The notes under the pieces: model-generated
Databases searched by the model: none
What the model was told of the DNA's origin: nothing
What the model saw: only the letters and a program-made list of their open reading frames with translations
Assembly (NCBI GenBank): GCA_041690135.1
Contig: JAWLHY010000002.1
Coordinates: 1,136,342-1,200,341, forward strand
Origin: Armatimonadota bacterium
GTDB taxonomy: Bacteria; Armatimonadota; SYMT01
Direction of reading: 5' to 3'
DNA: 64,000 nucleotides
Made by a program: the position numbers and the translations under genes
Shown: positions 55,981-64,000 of the stretch, piece by piece
Position numbering within the stretch: position 1 is the stretch's first letter
Layout: each line of letters begins with the position of its first letter

Positions 55981-56550
55981 TCACCCTTTCGGGGGGAGGG
56001 TAAACAGATCCGCCACACGGTAGCGGAGGTCGGGGATTAGCCCGGGAGCCGTGAGTTCATCGGTCGGCACGAGGCGCACCACCGAGCGGTCGCTGCGGTA
56101 GATGTGAACGATCCGCGTTTCCGGGTTGACCACCCAGACCAGCGGCACCCCGGCGGCGAGGTATTCCTCGATCTTGGTGTCCACTTCGTAGACCGTGTCG
56201 TTCGGCGAGACGACTTCCACGGCGAGGTCCGGGGGAATCGGAATATGGCCCGCGGGAATCTGTTCATCCGGCAGCCGGCCCCGGCAAATGAAAGAGACAT
56301 CCGGTTTCCGGACTTTCCGGGGGTCATCCGGGAAGCACTGGTAGCCGGTCTCGGAGATCGCCCAGCCGAGCCCGCGGTCTTCACCAAGGTTGCCGAGTAG
56401 CCGGAGAATTCGCCCGCTCACCCAATCGGCGAAGCCGCCCACATGTTTCTCCACCAGATTTCCGCCCACAAGTTCGTAGGCTTTGCCGTCATCGGGCAGC
56501 GACAACAGGTCTTCGGGAGTGTAGGTCGTTTCTGCGGCGATTGCGATCAT
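55981..56550 (-). CDS. Uma2 family endonuclease
   Basis: YELVGG, RKPDVSF, PDLAVEVVSPND, YLAAGVPLVWVVNP. Confidence 0.92.
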   Translation of the reverse strand: MIAIAAETTYTPEDLLSLPDDGKAYELVGGNLVEKHVGGFADWVSGRILRLLGNLGEDRGLGWAISETGYQCFPDDPRKVRKPDVSFICRGRLPDEQIPAGHIPIPPDLAVEVVSPNDTVYEVDTKIEEYLAAGVPLVWVVNPETRIVHIYRSDRSVVRLVPTDELTAPGLIPDLRYRVADLFTLPPKG

Positions 56551-56935
56551 TCTCAGTCCTTCTCCTGGCGTGAACCCCACTGCCGGGTGCCTGTTCGGCT
56601 CCAGGCAGTGATTATCCTTGTGTTTAGCCCTTCTTCCGCCGGTGGTGATGCGTCTCCGGCAGTAATGAGTTGGCCGTTGGAGAGGGGCCCTGTCTCGGAT
56701 TGTACCCGAGTTGGCGGATAGCGTACCCTCTGCAATGCCGCCCGAGCCCCAGGCCCCGCGCCAGTCACGCCGATACTCCCGCCACCGGCCAGTGGGTCCG
56801 CCGCTCGAACACGCCTTCCAACCGTCCGCCAACCGGAGCGGGCCGCCGCGCATTTGTTAGGAAAGTCCTCCCGGCTTGGGAGGTCCCCAGGCCCAGCAGG
56901 CGCGACCCGCGCCCTGCCGTCGTGGAGAACGTCGC

Positions 56936-59294: not shown

Positions 59295-59903
59295 ATGGAG
59301 AGCAGCCGTCTCTGCGACCTGGAGAGTGTCATTCCGTCGATATATCCGCCCTCTCCAGAGCTTTGTCTCAGTATTCTGCTCATCGCCCGCCGATCGGGAC
59401 GGAGCGTTGGCCTGGGAGCCGATGCGGTGGAAGACTGCGCGATGGAGTTTCTGGTGCATCTCCTGGAAGACGACGGACGCCGGCTGAAGCAGGCGCCTTC
59501 CCATCCCGCACTGTTTCCCTGGCTGCGCCGGTGTGCTCGGAATTTCGCTTGTAATGTTCTTCGCTCGCAGGTTGCCGTGGCTCGCCGTCAGGAGCCAATG
59601 GTTCCGGAAACACTGGACCGTGGCATCGGGGAGACGGTTCTCAGGGCCGTGGACCGCGATAGCCTGCGGGTAGAATTCTGGTCCCTGATGTTTAGCTCGA
59701 TTCGGGGCCTTTCGCGCACGCACCAGGAGATCCTCATCCGGTTCTATGTCTCCGGGCAGTCGGTAGAAGAACTAGCGTTGGAGATGGATCGCACGCCGCA
59801 TGCCGTGGAGCAGGCACTATTCCGCGCACGAAAGCGTCTGCGTGAAGAACTGGTTCGCCACGGCATTGATGAAACGGATCTGCTTGCTTACTTGCGGGAG
59901 TAA
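59295..59903 (+). CDS. ECF sigma-70 factor
   Basis: AVEDCAMEF, WLRRCARN (region 2); GQSVEELALEMDRTPHAVEQALFRARKRL (region 4). Confidence 0.82.
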   Translation: MESSRLCDLESVIPSIYPPSPELCLSILLIARRSGRSVGLGADAVEDCAMEFLVHLLEDDGRRLKQAPSHPALFPWLRRCARNFACNVLRSQVAVARRQEPMVPETLDRGIGETVLRAVDRDSLRVEFWSLMFSSIRGLSRTHQEILIRFYVSGQSVEELALEMDRTPHAVEQALFRARKRLREELVRHGIDETDLLAYLRE

Positions 59904-60093: not shown

Positions 60094-60729
60094 ATGCCGA
60101 TGCATCCACTCCTTCCCCTCATGGCCCGGTTTATTCTGGGATTCATGTGGATACTTGCCGCACTCGGCAAACTCGCCCGGCGTGGCAGTGGCGGAAACGA
60201 ACTCGTGCAGTCACTGGGGGTGCGGCCGGAGTGGCTGAGTTCCCTGGCGACAACGGTGCTTCCGTTGGTGGAGCTGGGTTTGGGGGTCGCGCTACTGCTT
60301 GGGATCGGAGGGGATTGGGCTGCTTACGGAAGCCTGGGATTGCTTCTGGTATTCACCACGGTCATCCTCGCGGTTCTTGTCCAGGGCCGGCGTGTCGTGT
60401 GCAACTGTTTCGGTTCGTTGGGGCGAGCGCCGCTTTCAGTTTGGTCCGTGGTTCGAAACGGAGCCTTCGTCCTGCTTACGTTGCTCGCGCTCCATCCGGG
60501 AGCGGACTTCCTTACCGTGGATGGCCTCCTTTCCGGCAGCACGAGGCCGCTGGGGGCGCCGCTCTCGGACTTGATTCCCATGCTGGCGTTGTTCTCGGTG
60601 GTCGGCATTCTGGCGGCGCTGGGGGCCGCTGCGTGGGAGGTGGGCTTGCTGGTGGCGCGAGCGAAGGAGGGTCCGGCACTGCTGGCTCCGGATCGCGACC
60701 GTTTCCGGCGGTGGTTCCGCGTGGTGTGA
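60094..60729 (+). CDS. mauE: MauE/DoxX family redox-associated membrane protein
   Basis: AALGKL, LPLVELGLG, CNCFG, VVRN motifs; AGGAG RBS. Confidence 0.85.
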   Translation: MPMHPLLPLMARFILGFMWILAALGKLARRGSGGNELVQSLGVRPEWLSSLATTVLPLVELGLGVALLLGIGGDWAAYGSLGLLLVFTTVILAVLVQGRRVVCNCFGSLGRAPLSVWSVVRNGAFVLLTLLALHPGADFLTVDGLLSGSTRPLGAPLSDLIPMLALFSVVGILAALGAAAWEVGLLVARAKEGPALLAPDRDRFRRWFRVV

Positions 60730-60781: not shown

Positions 60782-61447
60782 GTGCCACAAGGTCTCTGGC
60801 TCTATTCGTACCTGGGTCTCTGGGCTCTCTTGATCCTCACCAGTCTGCTGCTCTTTGCGGTGGTCCGGCAGTTACGCGCTCTGCACAGTTTTTGGGTGCA
60901 GAACGACCCGGAATGGGGGTTGCCGCTGGGGGCGCTGGCGCCCGCGGTAGCCGGAGGAGATGTCTTCGGCAATCCGGCCTCGTTGGCAGCTACCCGGGGT
61001 AAGAAGACGCTCATCCTGTTCCTCTCGCGCGGGTGCAAGGCGTGCCGTCAGGTGGTGTTGATGGTCCCCACGCTGGCCCGCTGGGAACAGATGGAGATCC
61101 TGCTGGTGGTGGGCGGCAGCGCCCTCGATGCCCGGCTCTACATGGCGGAACATCACAGGGAGGAGCGGTTTCCGACGGTGCCGGTGCTGTGCGATCGGGA
61201 CTATGGCCTGTTGGAGAAGTACAAGGTTTCCGCCGTGCCCTACGCAGTGGTGGTGGACGAGGATGGCCGCGTGGGGGCCAAGGGCTCCCCGCTGGCGAGT
61301 GCGGAGATCGCGATGCTGCTGCGCCAGGCGGATGAGCTCCGCCGCAAGCGCCAGGAAGCGGCGCCCCGGCCGGGCGTTGGCTTCATCCCCGCGGAGCGGC
61401 TCGTACCGCGCGACGTGGAGAGCGAAGTGGCGGTGTCCGCGCGTTGA
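60782..61447 (+). CDS. MauD-like membrane-anchored thioredoxin, copy 1
   Basis: N-terminal TM then RQL, GLPLGALAP, FLSRGCKAC, VPYAVVVDEDGRVGAKG. Confidence 0.8.
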   Translation: MPQGLWLYSYLGLWALLILTSLLLFAVVRQLRALHSFWVQNDPEWGLPLGALAPAVAGGDVFGNPASLAATRGKKTLILFLSRGCKACRQVVLMVPTLARWEQMEILLVVGGSALDARLYMAEHHREERFPTVPVLCDRDYGLLEKYKVSAVPYAVVVDEDGRVGAKGSPLASAEIAMLLRQADELRRKRQEAAPRPGVGFIPAERLVPRDVESEVAVSAR

Positions 61448-61461
61448 AGCAGGGGGTCGTG

Positions 61462-62070
61462 ATGGAGCGATTTTGGATCGTGACGCATGTTCTGGGCTGG
61501 GGCCTGGGCCTGCTCCAACTGGCGGTGCTGATCGCCCTACTCTGGGCCGTCGGGCGCATTCATCTGAAAGACACGCGGGCCTTTCACGCGTTGATCACCG
61601 ATGAGGGCCCCGACATTCACGAGCCGCTTCCGCCGTTTGCGGGACGCGACGCCACCGGGCGTTCCGTGCGAAGCCTCGACTATGCGGGGAGATCGTTCGT
61701 GCTGCTCCTGGTCAGCCCGGAGTGCGCGCCCTGCGAGCAGTTGCTGGCCGCGGTAAACCCGGCCGTACAGGCCATCCCCGGCTTTCCCGAGCCGGTGGTG
61801 GTGATGGAAGGAGACAGCAGCAATGCCGAGCTCGTTGCGCGCCGCGACCGGTTGAACTGTCCGGTCATCGTCGATCCGGATGGGGCGATCCGCGAAGGGC
61901 TGGGAGTCCAGCGCACCCCGTACGCCTTCCTGGTGGACGAGGCCGGGGTCGTGCGGATGAAGGGCATCGTCAACAGTGGCGGGCAGTTGGAAGGACTGGT
62001 GCGTCGCCGCGGCCGCCACATCGGAAATCTGGAATGGCAGACTGTCGATACGGGTCTATCGACCGCTTGA
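61462..62070 (+). CDS. MauD-like membrane-anchored thioredoxin, copy 2
   Basis: N-terminal TM, EGPDI, VSPECAPC, TPYAFLVDEAGVVRMKGIVNS. Confidence 0.82.
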   Translation: MERFWIVTHVLGWGLGLLQLAVLIALLWAVGRIHLKDTRAFHALITDEGPDIHEPLPPFAGRDATGRSVRSLDYAGRSFVLLLVSPECAPCEQLLAAVNPAVQAIPGFPEPVVVMEGDSSNAELVARRDRLNCPVIVDPDGAIREGLGVQRTPYAFLVDEAGVVRMKGIVNSGGQLEGLVRRRGRHIGNLEWQTVDTGLSTA

Positions 62071-62193
62071 GCCGGGCCGGCTCGGGCGCTTCACCGCCGA
62101 GACGCTCCGGTGGGACGGATCGCTGGGGTCCGTCGACCGAGGCTCTCATGACCGGGGCCGCCCCGGGTGGGCGACCCAGTAGGAGTTCCCTCC

Positions 62194-62625
62194 ATGGATG
62201 AATTGATCCGCAAATTCTCACTCTCCCTGGCCCGAAGTACGGGCCGGCGCGGCTTCCTGGCGGGTGTTGCCCGCGGCACCGTGGGCCTGGGCCTGCTCCT
62301 GGGCGGGGTGTTCGGTGCGCCGCCCCAGGCCTTTGCCGACTCGAACTGCAAGAACTACGACAAGACGGGTTACCCGGACAGCTGCGGCAACTCCTCCGCT
62401 AATTACTGCAACAGTGGGGATGCCAGCGGGTGCTACGACGGCGACAACAACGTGACCTACTGTTCGAACTGCCCCTCCAACGATGCGAGCGGCTGCCCGA
62501 GCGGGCACACCAAGGGAGGCCAGTGGTCCTGTTGCTGCAGCAATAAGATCAGTACCTGCCAGGACTGCTACGACAGCAGCAGCAATCTCTGTATCTGCAA
62601 GACGACCGACCGCGGCAAGTGCTAA
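62194..62625 (+). CDS. Tat-exported Cys-rich small protein, MauA (amine dehydrogenase light chain)-like
   Basis: AGGAG RBS; leader MDELIRKFSLSLARSTGRRGFL...AFA; 95-aa mature part with 15 Cys and 1 Trp; CPSG...W...C...DC. Confidence 0.8.
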   Translation: MDELIRKFSLSLARSTGRRGFLAGVARGTVGLGLLLGGVFGAPPQAFADSNCKNYDKTGYPDSCGNSSANYCNSGDASGCYDGDNNVTYCSNCPSNDASGCPSGHTKGGQWSCCCSNKISTCQDCYDSSSNLCICKTTDRGKC

Positions 62626-62875
62626 AGTCGGCGCCTGAGTGAGAACCGTCCTTTCGTTCGCCGGCACGGAGCGGCGCGATCGGACAAGACCCGGGAATCC
62701 CACCGCGAGCCGGCCGGCTGCTCCGGAGCGACCTACCCGAATGGGGAGCGTTCCGGGGCGCCGGTGGGCGCGGAGGGGATCCGAGAACACCCAGTTGCCG
62801 GTGATGGGCTCAGCCTGGGAACGGTCAGTCCGGCAATCGGTTAAGAAGGTTTCTCAACGGATGTGAGGGGAAGGT

Positions 62876-63679
62876 ATGACGGGGGAACGGCTCCAGAAGG
62901 CACCACAGCAACTGGCGCTTGGCGTGGGCGGAATTCTGGTGGGCGCCGCGCTGGCGATGGCGGGAGACGCGGGCCGGATGCTTTCACCGACGGCCGTCCT
63001 GTTGCTCCTGGCGGTGATGACCGGCGTGGCGAAGAGCGGCTCGACGTGAGGGCTCTCCATGCTGGGCCAGTTCGGCCCCATTGCCCAGCGCTCGGCCGGC
63101 ACCGGGTTGCGCGCGGCGGTGATGTATACCGTCGGGATGGCCCTCGGTGGCGGGACCGTCGGGCTCTTACTCGGTACTTTGGGATTGGGTTTGCGGTGGC
63201 TCTTCGACCTGGGGTACCAGGCCGAGGCCCGGTGGGTGCTCCTGGCGGTATCCGTGCTGGGGTTTGTAGGCGGGCTGCGAGATCTGGAGTTCATCCGCTT
63301 CGCTCTCCCGCAGCCGGCCCGGCAGGTGCCCCGTCACTACCTGGCCGTGTTCGGACCGGTGTGGACGGCTCTCTTCTGGGGCCTCGGCATCGGCCTGGCC
63401 TACAGCACGATGATCCAGTTTTCCCTGTACTGGGTGCTGGCGGTTTGGGTCACCCTGGCGGGTAGCCCGGTACTGGGCCTCGTGGCCCTGGGGCTGTATG
63501 GCCTGGTCAACGGGCTGCTGCTGATCGTCGATATCGCGGCGGTGGCGCGGGGCCGCTGGGAAAGCGGCGGGGTGCTCGGCTGGGGCCGTACCGCTCTATT
63601 CTTCAACGTGGGAGGAGTCGTGCTGCTGGCGTGCGGAGTTTTCCTGGCACTGCGGGCAGCACTACCGGTAGTTTTGTGA
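62876..63679 (+). CDS. MauF-like (CcdA/DsbD-like) membrane protein, candidate selenoprotein with in-frame UGA at 63047-63049
   Basis: Purine-rich RBS and ATG 62876 in frame with ORF 63059-63679 across a single TGA: SGST-U-GLSML; LPQPARQVP motif. Confidence 0.7.
63050..63089 (+). promoter_or_regulatory. Candidate bacterial SECIS element
   Basis: gggc..atg(ct)gggcc-AGTTC-ggccc-cat-t-gccc hairpin; apical loop begins 19 nt after the UGA and has GU at positions 2-3. Confidence 0.55.
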
Positions 63680-63728: not shown

Positions 63729-64000
63729 ATGAGATGGCAAACAGCGTTCCGTCATTGGCTCTTGGGGATGGGGATAAGCCTTGCGACGGTCGGAGGGGTG
63801 GCTGCTCAAGAGTTCCCGGCTCCTCCGGGTGACCAGAACCCGCGCGCGCTCCCGGTATCCCTTCGTGCCCACGGCATCCCGGCCGGCGAGGTGGTGCAAG
63901 AGTTGCAGGAGCAGATGCGGGTGCCGTTGAAGGCCGAGGCCGGGCTGGCCGCGGACCGGCTGGTGGTCTTTTGCCGGAACCGGCCCGCGGGACAGGTGAT
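63729..64000 (+). CDS. Secreted secretin-N/STN-like domain protein (partial, runs off window end)
   Basis: MRWQTAFRHWLLGMGISLATVGGVAA signal then PVSLRAHGIPAGEVVQELQEQMRVPLKAEAGLAADRLVVFCRNRPAGQV, similar to the segment in 163-2829. Confidence 0.65.
   Translation, partial: MRWQTAFRHWLLGMGISLATVGGVAAQEFPAPPGDQNPRALPVSLRAHGIPAGEVVQELQEQMRVPLKAEAGLAADRLVVFCRNRPAGQV

Follow-up and report, generated by a model that had tools for sequence, protein, structure and literature searches.

The 64,000-nt stretch of Armatimonadota DNA analysed here (the window, to which all counts on window proteins refer) carries near its end a hydrophobic reading frame of 57 codons that is closed by a TGA at 63047-63049, beyond which the same frame runs on unbroken through GGG CTC TCC ATG (63059) to a stop at 63677-63679. 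This arrangement raises the question of whether two small genes lie end to end, or whether one gene contains a UGA that the cell reads as selenocysteine (Sec, U), as had been proposed in a preliminary description of the sequence. Our analysis indicates that the 57-codon and 206-codon calls very probably form one 267-residue membrane protein of the MauF family, with a predicted Sec at UGA 63047.

The start codon, TGA, internal ATG and downstream open reading frame (ORF) named in the preliminary description (ATG 62876, TGA 63047, ATG 63059, ORF 63059-63679) are all present in the sequence, ATG 62876 being the earliest start codon in frame after the preceding stop. The ribosome-binding site attributed to the 57-codon ORF was also found, as the purine-rich stretch GAGGGGAAGG at 62865-62874. 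Translation through the TGA yields 267 residues with the junction ...AKSGST-U-GLSMLGQFGP..., the surrounding part of the read-through peptide being ...SGST-U-GLSMLGQFGPIAQR. GC content by codon position is 0.74/0.53/0.83 over the 57 upstream codons and 0.72/0.48/0.82 over the downstream ORF, and given this matching pattern the upstream codons look coding in that frame.

Homologues were collected by a HMMER scan with the read-through protein against 1.84 billion representatives, which gave 405 matches at E <= 1e-3 (26 at <= 1e-10 and 3 at <= 1e-30), and the best 150 of these were placed on a profile of the full-length alignment. Homologues align from query residues 5-45 through 200+, and the 21 full-length homologues aligned with the query hold Cys (20) or Trp (one, P0100) in the UGA column, with a nearly invariant Gly directly after it in the motif x-C-G-x-S-(H/M). 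The expectation that Cys would occupy this column, with similarity on both sides of it, is borne out by this alignment. Homology of the 57 upstream codons was likewise found, both in the existence of full-length Cys forms and in a 57-residue database entry, P0017, that shares 74% identity with the upstream ORF and stops at the same residue. Among the other close relatives, P0003 is 84% identical to the downstream part and P0004-P0006 are 45-55% identical. Across a 91-sequence alignment the sole conserved Cys column is the Sec/Cys column, conserved in all 29 sequences that cover it.

The start sites of the database proteins carry a second signal. Within the best 150 of the 405 matches, 20 span the column with Cys and one with Trp, while 83 start exactly four residues past it, at the Met that gene callers use here too; one starts two residues past it (P0007, 'MSM...'), four start later, and 41 are fragments or have N-termini that could not be placed. 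When dozens of unrelated genes are all called from one and the same conserved Met inside the protein, this is the mark of a stop codon read just upstream. The window's own entry, P0002, is the 206-aa form starting at Met62, and, together with the 84 of the 150 best homologues that begin 2-4 residues past the column, it agrees with the earlier claim that standard callers truncate a 267-aa protein.

The genome encodes the machinery that such a reading calls for. Scored against curated cut-offs, SelA (566.6 bits), SelB (383.6 bits), SelD (369.6 bits) and tRNA-Sec (67.2 bits) were all found above threshold in the 9.1 Mb assembly, which answers the question, raised in the preliminary description, of whether Sec genes accompany the locus. 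The genes for SelA, a Sec-containing SelD and tRNA-Sec adjoin on contig 1 (C1:1149453-1152359), with selB elsewhere (C8:51343-53220). One in-frame TGA occurs in selD, read as KCGG-U-ASK, and one in the gene for FdhA (993.8 bits), in ...QARV-U-HSS. Decoding of UGA as Sec is thus in use in this organism for at least two classical selenoprotein genes.

A candidate Sec insertion sequence (SECIS) follows the UGA. The hairpin of the preliminary description (gggc/gccc base, atg/cat, 2-nt bulge, gggcc/ggccc, loop AGUUC) was reproduced exactly by a 44-nt fold, and we compared it with the genome's own fdhA element, numbering positions from the U of UGA. The fdhA element forms a 7-bp stem (15-21/27-33) with the loop GGUCU at 22-26 (G23, U24), and the MauF-like element forms stems of 3 + 5 bp (13-15/18-22 and 28-35) with the bulge C16 U17 and the loop AGUUC at 23-27 (G24, U25). 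Both elements have a 5-nt loop with GU, the MauF-like loop being shifted by 1 nt relative to the FdhA SECIS; in the E. coli fdhF element, U17 is bulged and the loop presents G23-U24. The best hairpin in the SelD gene has its loop ~14 nt farther from the UGA (G37 U38) than that of FdhA, and its spacing is that of the second hairpin in the Acidobacteriota-type MauF genes described below.

Orthologue DNA was retrieved by a pattern of the subclade whose called proteins start with 'MVGTIxP(I/M)V', a pattern that is silent on the upstream sequence. It returned 10 loci in species-representative genomes (8 Acidobacteriota, 1 Planctomycetota and 1 Chloroflexota) and 44 loci on metagenome contigs. At 10/10 genome loci an in-frame TGA lies exactly four codons before the called Met, with an open hydrophobic frame upstream and the motif ...LWSP-TGA-G-x-(S/N/A)-M at the site. 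The metagenome loci likewise have TGA at the column in 43 of the 43 evaluated, corresponding to 28 distinct 60-nt stretches, some of which duplicate genome loci (L108, for example, is the contig of L063); L116 was dropped from this set, its match starting at query residue 62, where it cannot be anchored. The true ends of the gene at nine genome loci are four TAG, four TGA and one TAA, whereas the internal codon is always TGA. SelA was detected above cut-off in eight of the ten carrier genomes and, in the ninth (G407), as a copy truncated at the edge of its contig (226 bits); no SelA was found in the Planctomycetota metagenome-assembled genome G404, which carries a TGA locus and for which no completeness is given. 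One locus, L065 (genome G405), contributes one of the ten TGA loci, one SelA match, one weak light-chain match and one of the five U-A pairs described below to the results given here, and no conclusion depends on it. The Cys column, the Sec genes and the TGA kept in orthologues together support the proposal that codon 58 encodes Sec in place of a redox Cys.

Within the Acidobacteriota-type clade, 35 distinct sequences share two adjacent hairpins, at columns 12-27 and 29-47, the loop of the second reading N-G-U-N-N with G37 U38 invariant. In these hairpins 96.0% of cells are paired (shuffles, 91.7%) and changes on both sides of a pair occur in 22 cells (shuffles, 7.1), neither value being reached in any of 500 shuffles; as the sequences are related and not independent, these figures are supportive and are not probabilities. 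Pair 33:43 is C-G in 30 sequences, U-A in 5 and broken in none, pair 30:46 shows five pair types, and sliding the partners by 1-3 columns lowers pairing to 36-59%. This covariation supports both hairpins in the clade. In these genes (L058-L067, L075-L118) the 45 nt after the TGA contain both hairpins, ATGGTnGGAACCAT and CCCATnGTnnATGGG, which at the same time code for the peptide M-V-G-T-I-x-P-(I/M)-V-(Y/H/N)-G. All 53 evaluated loci with the MVGTI-type peptide pattern are TGA forms and none is a Cys form (0/53). Five sequences replace Gly by Arg (GGG to AGG) and preserve the stem through an accompanying synonymous substitution, CCC to CCT. The paired changes and the TGA-only occurrence therefore suggest that RNA structure may constrain the protein sequence after Sec in this clade.

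Searches for DNA of closer relatives of the window gene had little yield. Pattern searches with the window protein in genome contigs gave 160 pattern matches with no relative among them, a search of metagenome contigs with the alignment of its own subclade found none, tblastn of the window protein against plasmids gave no match, and no orthologue was found in six other genomes of the family. Across 400 other genomes of the phylum the single real orthologue, in G323, is interrupted by the end of its contig. An alignment profile matched 31 further phylum genomes, all but G323 weakly (<=52 bits) and mostly inside ORFs of ~600-800 aa; we rejected these weak matches as orthologues and took them as DsbD-type fusions.

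Independent sequence data for the locus itself came from public runs, three of which held ~15% of sampled words; all of the sequences are Logan contigs, and a run designated X6 gave no contig. The RNA-library run X2 (record 8) yielded a 202-nt contig over 62916-63117 with 0 differences, which excludes an assembly error confined to this genome as the origin of the TGA, unless X2 is the source sample. A second RNA-library run, X1 (record 3), yielded a 192-nt variant contig (~95% identical) over 63004-63195, with 10 differences and the TGA kept. No listed change of this variant falls in 63044-63081, which comprises the TGA and the hairpin, while two fall in the 10 nt before and six in the 26 nt after. 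The changes listed in codons 1-57 are four synonymous and one nonsynonymous, and those in all contigs on the gene affect 11 codons synonymously and 4 nonsynonymously. A sequencing error at this codon had been named as a possible refutation, and the public contigs show TGA there, not TGC, TGT or TGG.

Several observations weigh against reading the locus as one selenoprotein gene. The folding energy of the hairpin region shows no excess stability over shuffled sequence (z = +0.80 for 54 nt, -0.35 for 44 nt); because the sequence is GC-rich, energy alone does not single the hairpin out, and we rejected it as SECIS evidence. A geometry filter (stem of >=5 pairs, loop of 4-6 nt, GU at loop positions 2-3, G at +22..+26) retained sites after 63 of 11,822 TGA ends of long frames in the genome (0.53%) and after 19 of 2,770 sampled TGA triplets (0.69%), its criteria having been chosen post hoc, after both elements had been seen. 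By geometry, then, the hairpin is more than chance, and by folding energy it is not; for GC-rich genomes, where energy is uninformative, the genome's own fdhA SECIS is usable as a template for judging candidate SECIS elements. The homologue P0100 (252 aa) has Trp at the column (GGVWGMA), TGG being one step from TGA. The window protein, whole and as halves, gave no Pfam or NCBIfam match, with Pfam searched at E up to 1. A TGA throughout the window's own subclade is deduced from the Met62 starts of the closest relatives, the 57-aa P0017 and the public contigs, and contigs from RNA libraries do not prove transcription. Finally, a GAGGG lies 6 nt 5' of ATG 63059, making independent initiation there physically plausible.

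That GAGGG favours a reading as two separate genes, in which translation of a 57-residue peptide would stop at UGA 63047 and restart at AUG 63059 to give 206 residues, a naturally split MauF. Public calls start at this Met in the window protein and in 83 of its 150 best homologues, and the 57-aa ORF is on record as protein P0017. Some termination at a Sec-UGA is normal in bacterial selenoprotein genes, hence both products may coexist. A split at this point, however, would hit and delete the family's one conserved Cys, and the GG of the GAGGG belongs to the invariant Gly codon after Sec (the U-G codon pair). True stops vary, but TGA stands here without exception in the window, the 10 genome loci and the 43 metagenome loci examined (54/54), with the frame always kept, a SECIS-like hairpin following and SelA co-occurring, and we consider two genes very unlikely.

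The TGA might instead have arisen as a nonsense mutation that killed a MauF-like gene, since one base change turns TGC or TGT into TGA, and the window protein matches no curated family model. The same mutation would, however, have had to recur or persist in four phyla (Armatimonadota, Acidobacteriota, Planctomycetota and Chloroflexota) at loci where both halves are intact, relatives with 84% and 74% identity keep both parts, and most of the differences between strains, on either side of the TGA, are synonymous (11 vs 4 codons), leaving a pseudogene with a next to negligible probability. Insertion of Trp, Cys or Gly at the UGA, whether through near-cognate decoding or under a variant code, would accommodate the homologue with Trp at the column, whose TGG is one step away, but TGA ends 11,822 long frames in the genome and this gene itself, as an ordinary stop. 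Moreover, the genome has the full set of Sec genes along with two classical selenoprotein genes, 20/21 homologues have Cys, the usual counterpart of Sec, in this column, and the hairpin mimics the fdhA SECIS, all of which makes decoding as another residue highly improbable. We therefore retain the reading of one gene with Sec at codon 58, and its features are listed with those of the neighbouring genes below.

Features of the predicted MauF-like selenoprotein gene and its neighbourhood (positions in the window)
Feature	Position	Strand	Remarks
Full MauF-like gene, predicted selenoprotein	62876..63679	+	267 codons + stop in a single frame; predicted Sec at codon 58
In-frame UGA, predicted to be read as Sec	63047..63049	+	motif S-T-U-G-L-S-M
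Purine-rich Shine-Dalgarno-like stretch GAGGGGAAGG	62865..62874	+	precedes ATG 62876; read from the sequence
Met62 codon, false start of gene callers	63059..63061	+	start of the 206-aa database form
SECIS-like hairpin	63059..63081	+	AUG/CAU, bulge CU, GGGCC/GGCCC, apical loop AGUUC (63069-63073)
Outer GGGC/GCCC base of the hairpin	63050-63053 and 63083-63086	+	44-nt fold
Extracytoplasmic function (ECF)-type sigma factor	59295-59903		heads the gene order before the MauE-like gene
MauE-like membrane protein, first gene of the cluster	60094..60729	+	Pfam MauE 80.7 bits, cut-off 27
MauD-like thioredoxin-fold gene 1 (CKAC)	60782..61447	+	NCBIfam MauD E 1.5e-14, below cut-off
MauD-like thioredoxin-fold gene 2 (CAPC)	61444..62070	+	NCBIfam MauD E 9.4e-16, below cut-off; AhpC-TSA 36.6 bits
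Exported Cys-rich protein	62167..62625	+	152 aa, 15 Cys, twin-arginine-like signal (STGRRGFLAG), no Pfam family

We then considered which family this protein belongs to. An annotated copy of MauF, the methylamine utilization protein encoded in mauFBEDACJG clusters, was reached through the light-chain-like neighbour of the orthologue at L063, which matches methylamine dehydrogenase light chains (E 1e-16, 98% length). On the Paracoccus yeei plasmid NZ_CP024426.1 the gene order is LysR, MauF, mauB, MauE, mauD, mauA, amicyanin, mauJ, and its MauF (WP_099650727.1) reads ...LLSTWSPCGYSS... and ...PYPQRRAQVPH.... Comparison of a 22-sequence alignment of our family with this protein by hhalign gave a probability of 99.35% (E 6.6e-21, 175 columns), with the Cys of MauF on the UGA column. 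Both are polytopic proteins of ~270 residues in which a WSPCGxS-type motif precedes a helix break and (L/V)PxPQxxxQVP forms a further motif, the two reading GST-U-GLS and LPQPARQVP in the window protein and WSPCGYS and YPQRRAQVP in P. yeei MauF. They differ in that the window gene has a predicted Sec in place of Cys and in their very low pairwise identity (BLASTP E 1e-4 over 42 residues), and the W-S-P triplet of MauF is absent in the window protein but kept in the Acidobacteriota-type Sec forms. The S-P-C-G-x-S motif that the preliminary description had named is real in annotated MauF (WSPCGYSS), and its label 'MauF-like' is justified by the profile comparison (99.35%) and by the gene context in relatives.

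Similarity to DsbD places the family in a wider group. The Pfam model DsbD_2 (PF13386, cut-off 24.9) matched one of the 21 full-length homologues scanned (P0015, 34.4 bits) and two of nine read-through proteins scanned (L058 at 30.9 and L064 at 26.3 bits), and three more of the nine fell just under the cut-off of DsbD_TM (PF02683). E. coli DsbD residues 170-346 align weakly to the family profile (hhalign 56%, E 1.1e-4). In this alignment the Cys of the 'TPC' motif in transmembrane helix 1 (TM1) falls on the Sec/Cys column, whereas the second catalytic Cys of DsbD (TM4, 'CSPC') has no counterpart and aligns to Cys-free residues of the family. With a single conserved Cys column, the two-cysteine electron shuttle of DsbD therefore cannot work within one subunit, and the MauF family is, as judged from these alignments, a one-cysteine branch of the DsbD/CcdA superfamily.

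Structure prediction was consistent with a single protein. AlphaFold2 modelled the read-through product from the 91-sequence alignment as one compact helical bundle, with a mean predicted local distance difference test score (pLDDT) of 91.0 and a predicted template modelling score of 0.87. Residue 58 sits in this model in a break between helices 38-54 and 57-72, with pLDDT values of 96 and 93 for the blocks of residues 41-60, and a single fold of such high pLDDT suggests that the N-terminal part belongs to it. A sequence-profile search of the PDB returned nothing, and Foldseek found no match to the PDB at E <= 0.001. The best VIA-align Z-score was 6.6, and NqrE and RnfA/E gave 6.3 over whole chains, values within noise for helical bundles.

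To place the gene in context, we scanned 49 of 77 picked ORFs at the ten orthologous genome loci, the target and most short or minus-strand ORFs being left out. The relatives' order is MauE, thioredoxin-like protein, Cys-rich light-chain-like protein, Sec-MauF and heavy-chain-like protein. MauE is present at 8 of the 10 loci (the exceptions are L060, where none was found, and L062, which is without upstream sequence) and a thioredoxin-like gene at 9 of the 10. Directly upstream of the MauF gene, the seven loci inspected encode a protein of 164-188 residues with 15-22 Cys, for which the light-chain model Me-amine-dh_L scored 44.6 bits at L063 and 22.5 bits, below cut-off, at L065. Downstream, a protein of 370-460 residues matches Me-amine-dh_H at L058 (49.4 bits) and L060 (34.9 bits).

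The window shows a related arrangement. Of its two MauD-like proteins, the first (60782..61447) also matches Pfam AhpC-TSA and Redoxin just above their cut-offs; the two genes lie in tandem and overlap by 4 nt, and the relatives' loci show one such gene (9/10, with L062 lacking upstream sequence). The Cys-rich protein occupies the position of mauA in relatives, and a comparison with 5.8 billion proteins gave a single relative, P0163, at 93% identity. We presume it to be the client of a redox relay. It carries a patch, GQWSCCC (W-x-C-C-like), that resembles the W-x-x-CC of the relatives' light-chain-like proteins, and its mature part has one Trp only; we did not call it a light chain, its BLAST similarity to the relatives' light-chain-like proteins being marginal (E 0.003-0.007). 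Judged by sequence and gene order, the Sec family is the MauF of mau-like clusters, and the window holds a variant cluster with a different Cys-rich client.

Taken together, these results lead us to propose the following mechanism. UGA 63047 would be decoded as Sec by SelB and tRNA-Sec, directed by the hairpin at 63059-81, which starts 9 nt after the codon and whose loop would show G24-U25 much as the fdhA element shows G23-U24. Sec58 would stand for the conserved Cys of WSPCGxS at the break between two membrane helices, equivalent to the TM1 Cys of DsbD, and its selenol would be the redox-active nucleophile of a membrane thiol/selenol-disulfide relay. With the MauE-like and the two MauD-like proteins, Sec58 may introduce or rearrange disulfides in the exported protein with 15 Cys; because the family is without a second conserved Cys, its partner is proposed to be a Cys of MauD, MauE or the client, through an intermolecular selenylsulfide. 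MauE, MauD and MauF are thought to serve disulfide formation in the disulfide-rich light chain of methylamine dehydrogenase, a parallel to the proposed relay, and we know of no biochemical role assigned to MauF itself. Counting against a relay of this kind, the role of the selenol is drawn from homology and gene order, the Cys-rich neighbour gave no match to Me-amine-dh_L in Pfam, the 5 kb downstream yielded no heavy chain, and heavy chain, amicyanin and MauG were not seen in the stretch read.

We also asked whether this family had been described. Table 1 of a May 2026 review lists 119 prokaryotic selenoprotein families (PMC13188914), with no MauF, CcdA-like or SPUG entry among them. The same source includes TsoB (rhodanese/DsbD fusion-like, UxxxxU), MerT-like and YeeE/YedE (GUxSG) proteins, which resemble the window protein in having Sec in or next to a membrane domain in place of Cys, but which belong to other families with other motifs and contexts (PMC13188914). 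The main texts of the BSepDB paper (PMC13326102) and of deep-Sep (PMC12013277) contain no MauF or DsbD terms, although their supplements could list the family. A full-text search for literature linking Sec or selenoproteins with MauF, MauE, methylamine utilization, DoxX or tryptophan tryptophylquinone found nothing relevant. NCBIfam release 20, including its TsoB models, gave no match to the window protein or to nine read-through relatives, and no model in it matches the authentic P. yeei MauF. The family thus appears to be an uncatalogued one, missing from the catalogues checked, that would use the ordinary bacterial Sec mechanism.

Of the best 150 relatives, 84 resemble Sec forms and 20 are Cys forms, and the predicted selenoprotein family is common in soil bacteria. 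More tentatively, and with somewhat less than even confidence, we suggest that MauF-type proteins are uncatalogued, mostly Sec-containing membrane redox relays that make maturation selenium-dependent, act through an intermolecular selenylsulfide and, in the Acidobacteriota type, carry a hairpin-dictated peptide. If this is true, the maturation of disulfide-rich exported proteins would depend on selenium in many soil phyla, with clients that include the light chains of tryptophylquinone-type amine dehydrogenases and, here, the orphan 15-Cys protein. A single Sec acting through a selenylsulfide would then be the first mechanistic handle on MauF, and the Acidobacteriota-type peptide M-V-G-T-I-x-P-(I/M)-V after Sec would be dictated largely by two SECIS hairpins and not by protein function.

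Other consequences concern annotation and function. Gene callers misread the gene here and, to judge by the start sites, most of its public relatives too (84/150 best), so that databases would hold hundreds of N-terminally truncated proteins without their only redox residue. The bacterial selenoproteome would gain a membrane-embedded, DsbD-related, one-Sec family in phyla that dominate soil (Acidobacteriota, Armatimonadota, Planctomycetota and Chloroflexota). Substitution by Sec would also point strongly to a catalytic, redox-active role of the Cys conserved in MauF, so that the unexplained need for MauF in the biogenesis of methylamine dehydrogenase becomes a hypothesis of thiol/selenol exchange that can be tested.

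Some further features of these regions were noted. On the Paracoccus sp. plasmid NZ_CP102356.1 (L069), a cluster with a large subunit, MauE, a redoxin, a light chain and cytochromes c has no annotated MauF in 12.5 kb, and not every amine-dehydrogenase cluster therefore carries the gene nearby. Downstream of the window's MauF-like gene, a 578-residue protein with a signal-peptide-like start is encoded from 63729 to the window end at 64000, continuing beyond it (L068:5071-6807, + strand). It matched no Pfam family and showed no similarity to the relatives' heavy-chain-like neighbours, and we did not count it as part of the mau-like system. In Atlas it lies closest to clusters of hypothetical proteins from Armatimonadota, with a faint hint of STN/FecR_C, and it may form, with the ECF-type sigma factor, a separate signalling pair bracketing the mau-like genes. 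A few kb upstream, a gene for a putative restriction endonuclease of the Uma2 family (55981-56853, - strand, 112.9 bits) is unrelated to the selenoprotein gene.

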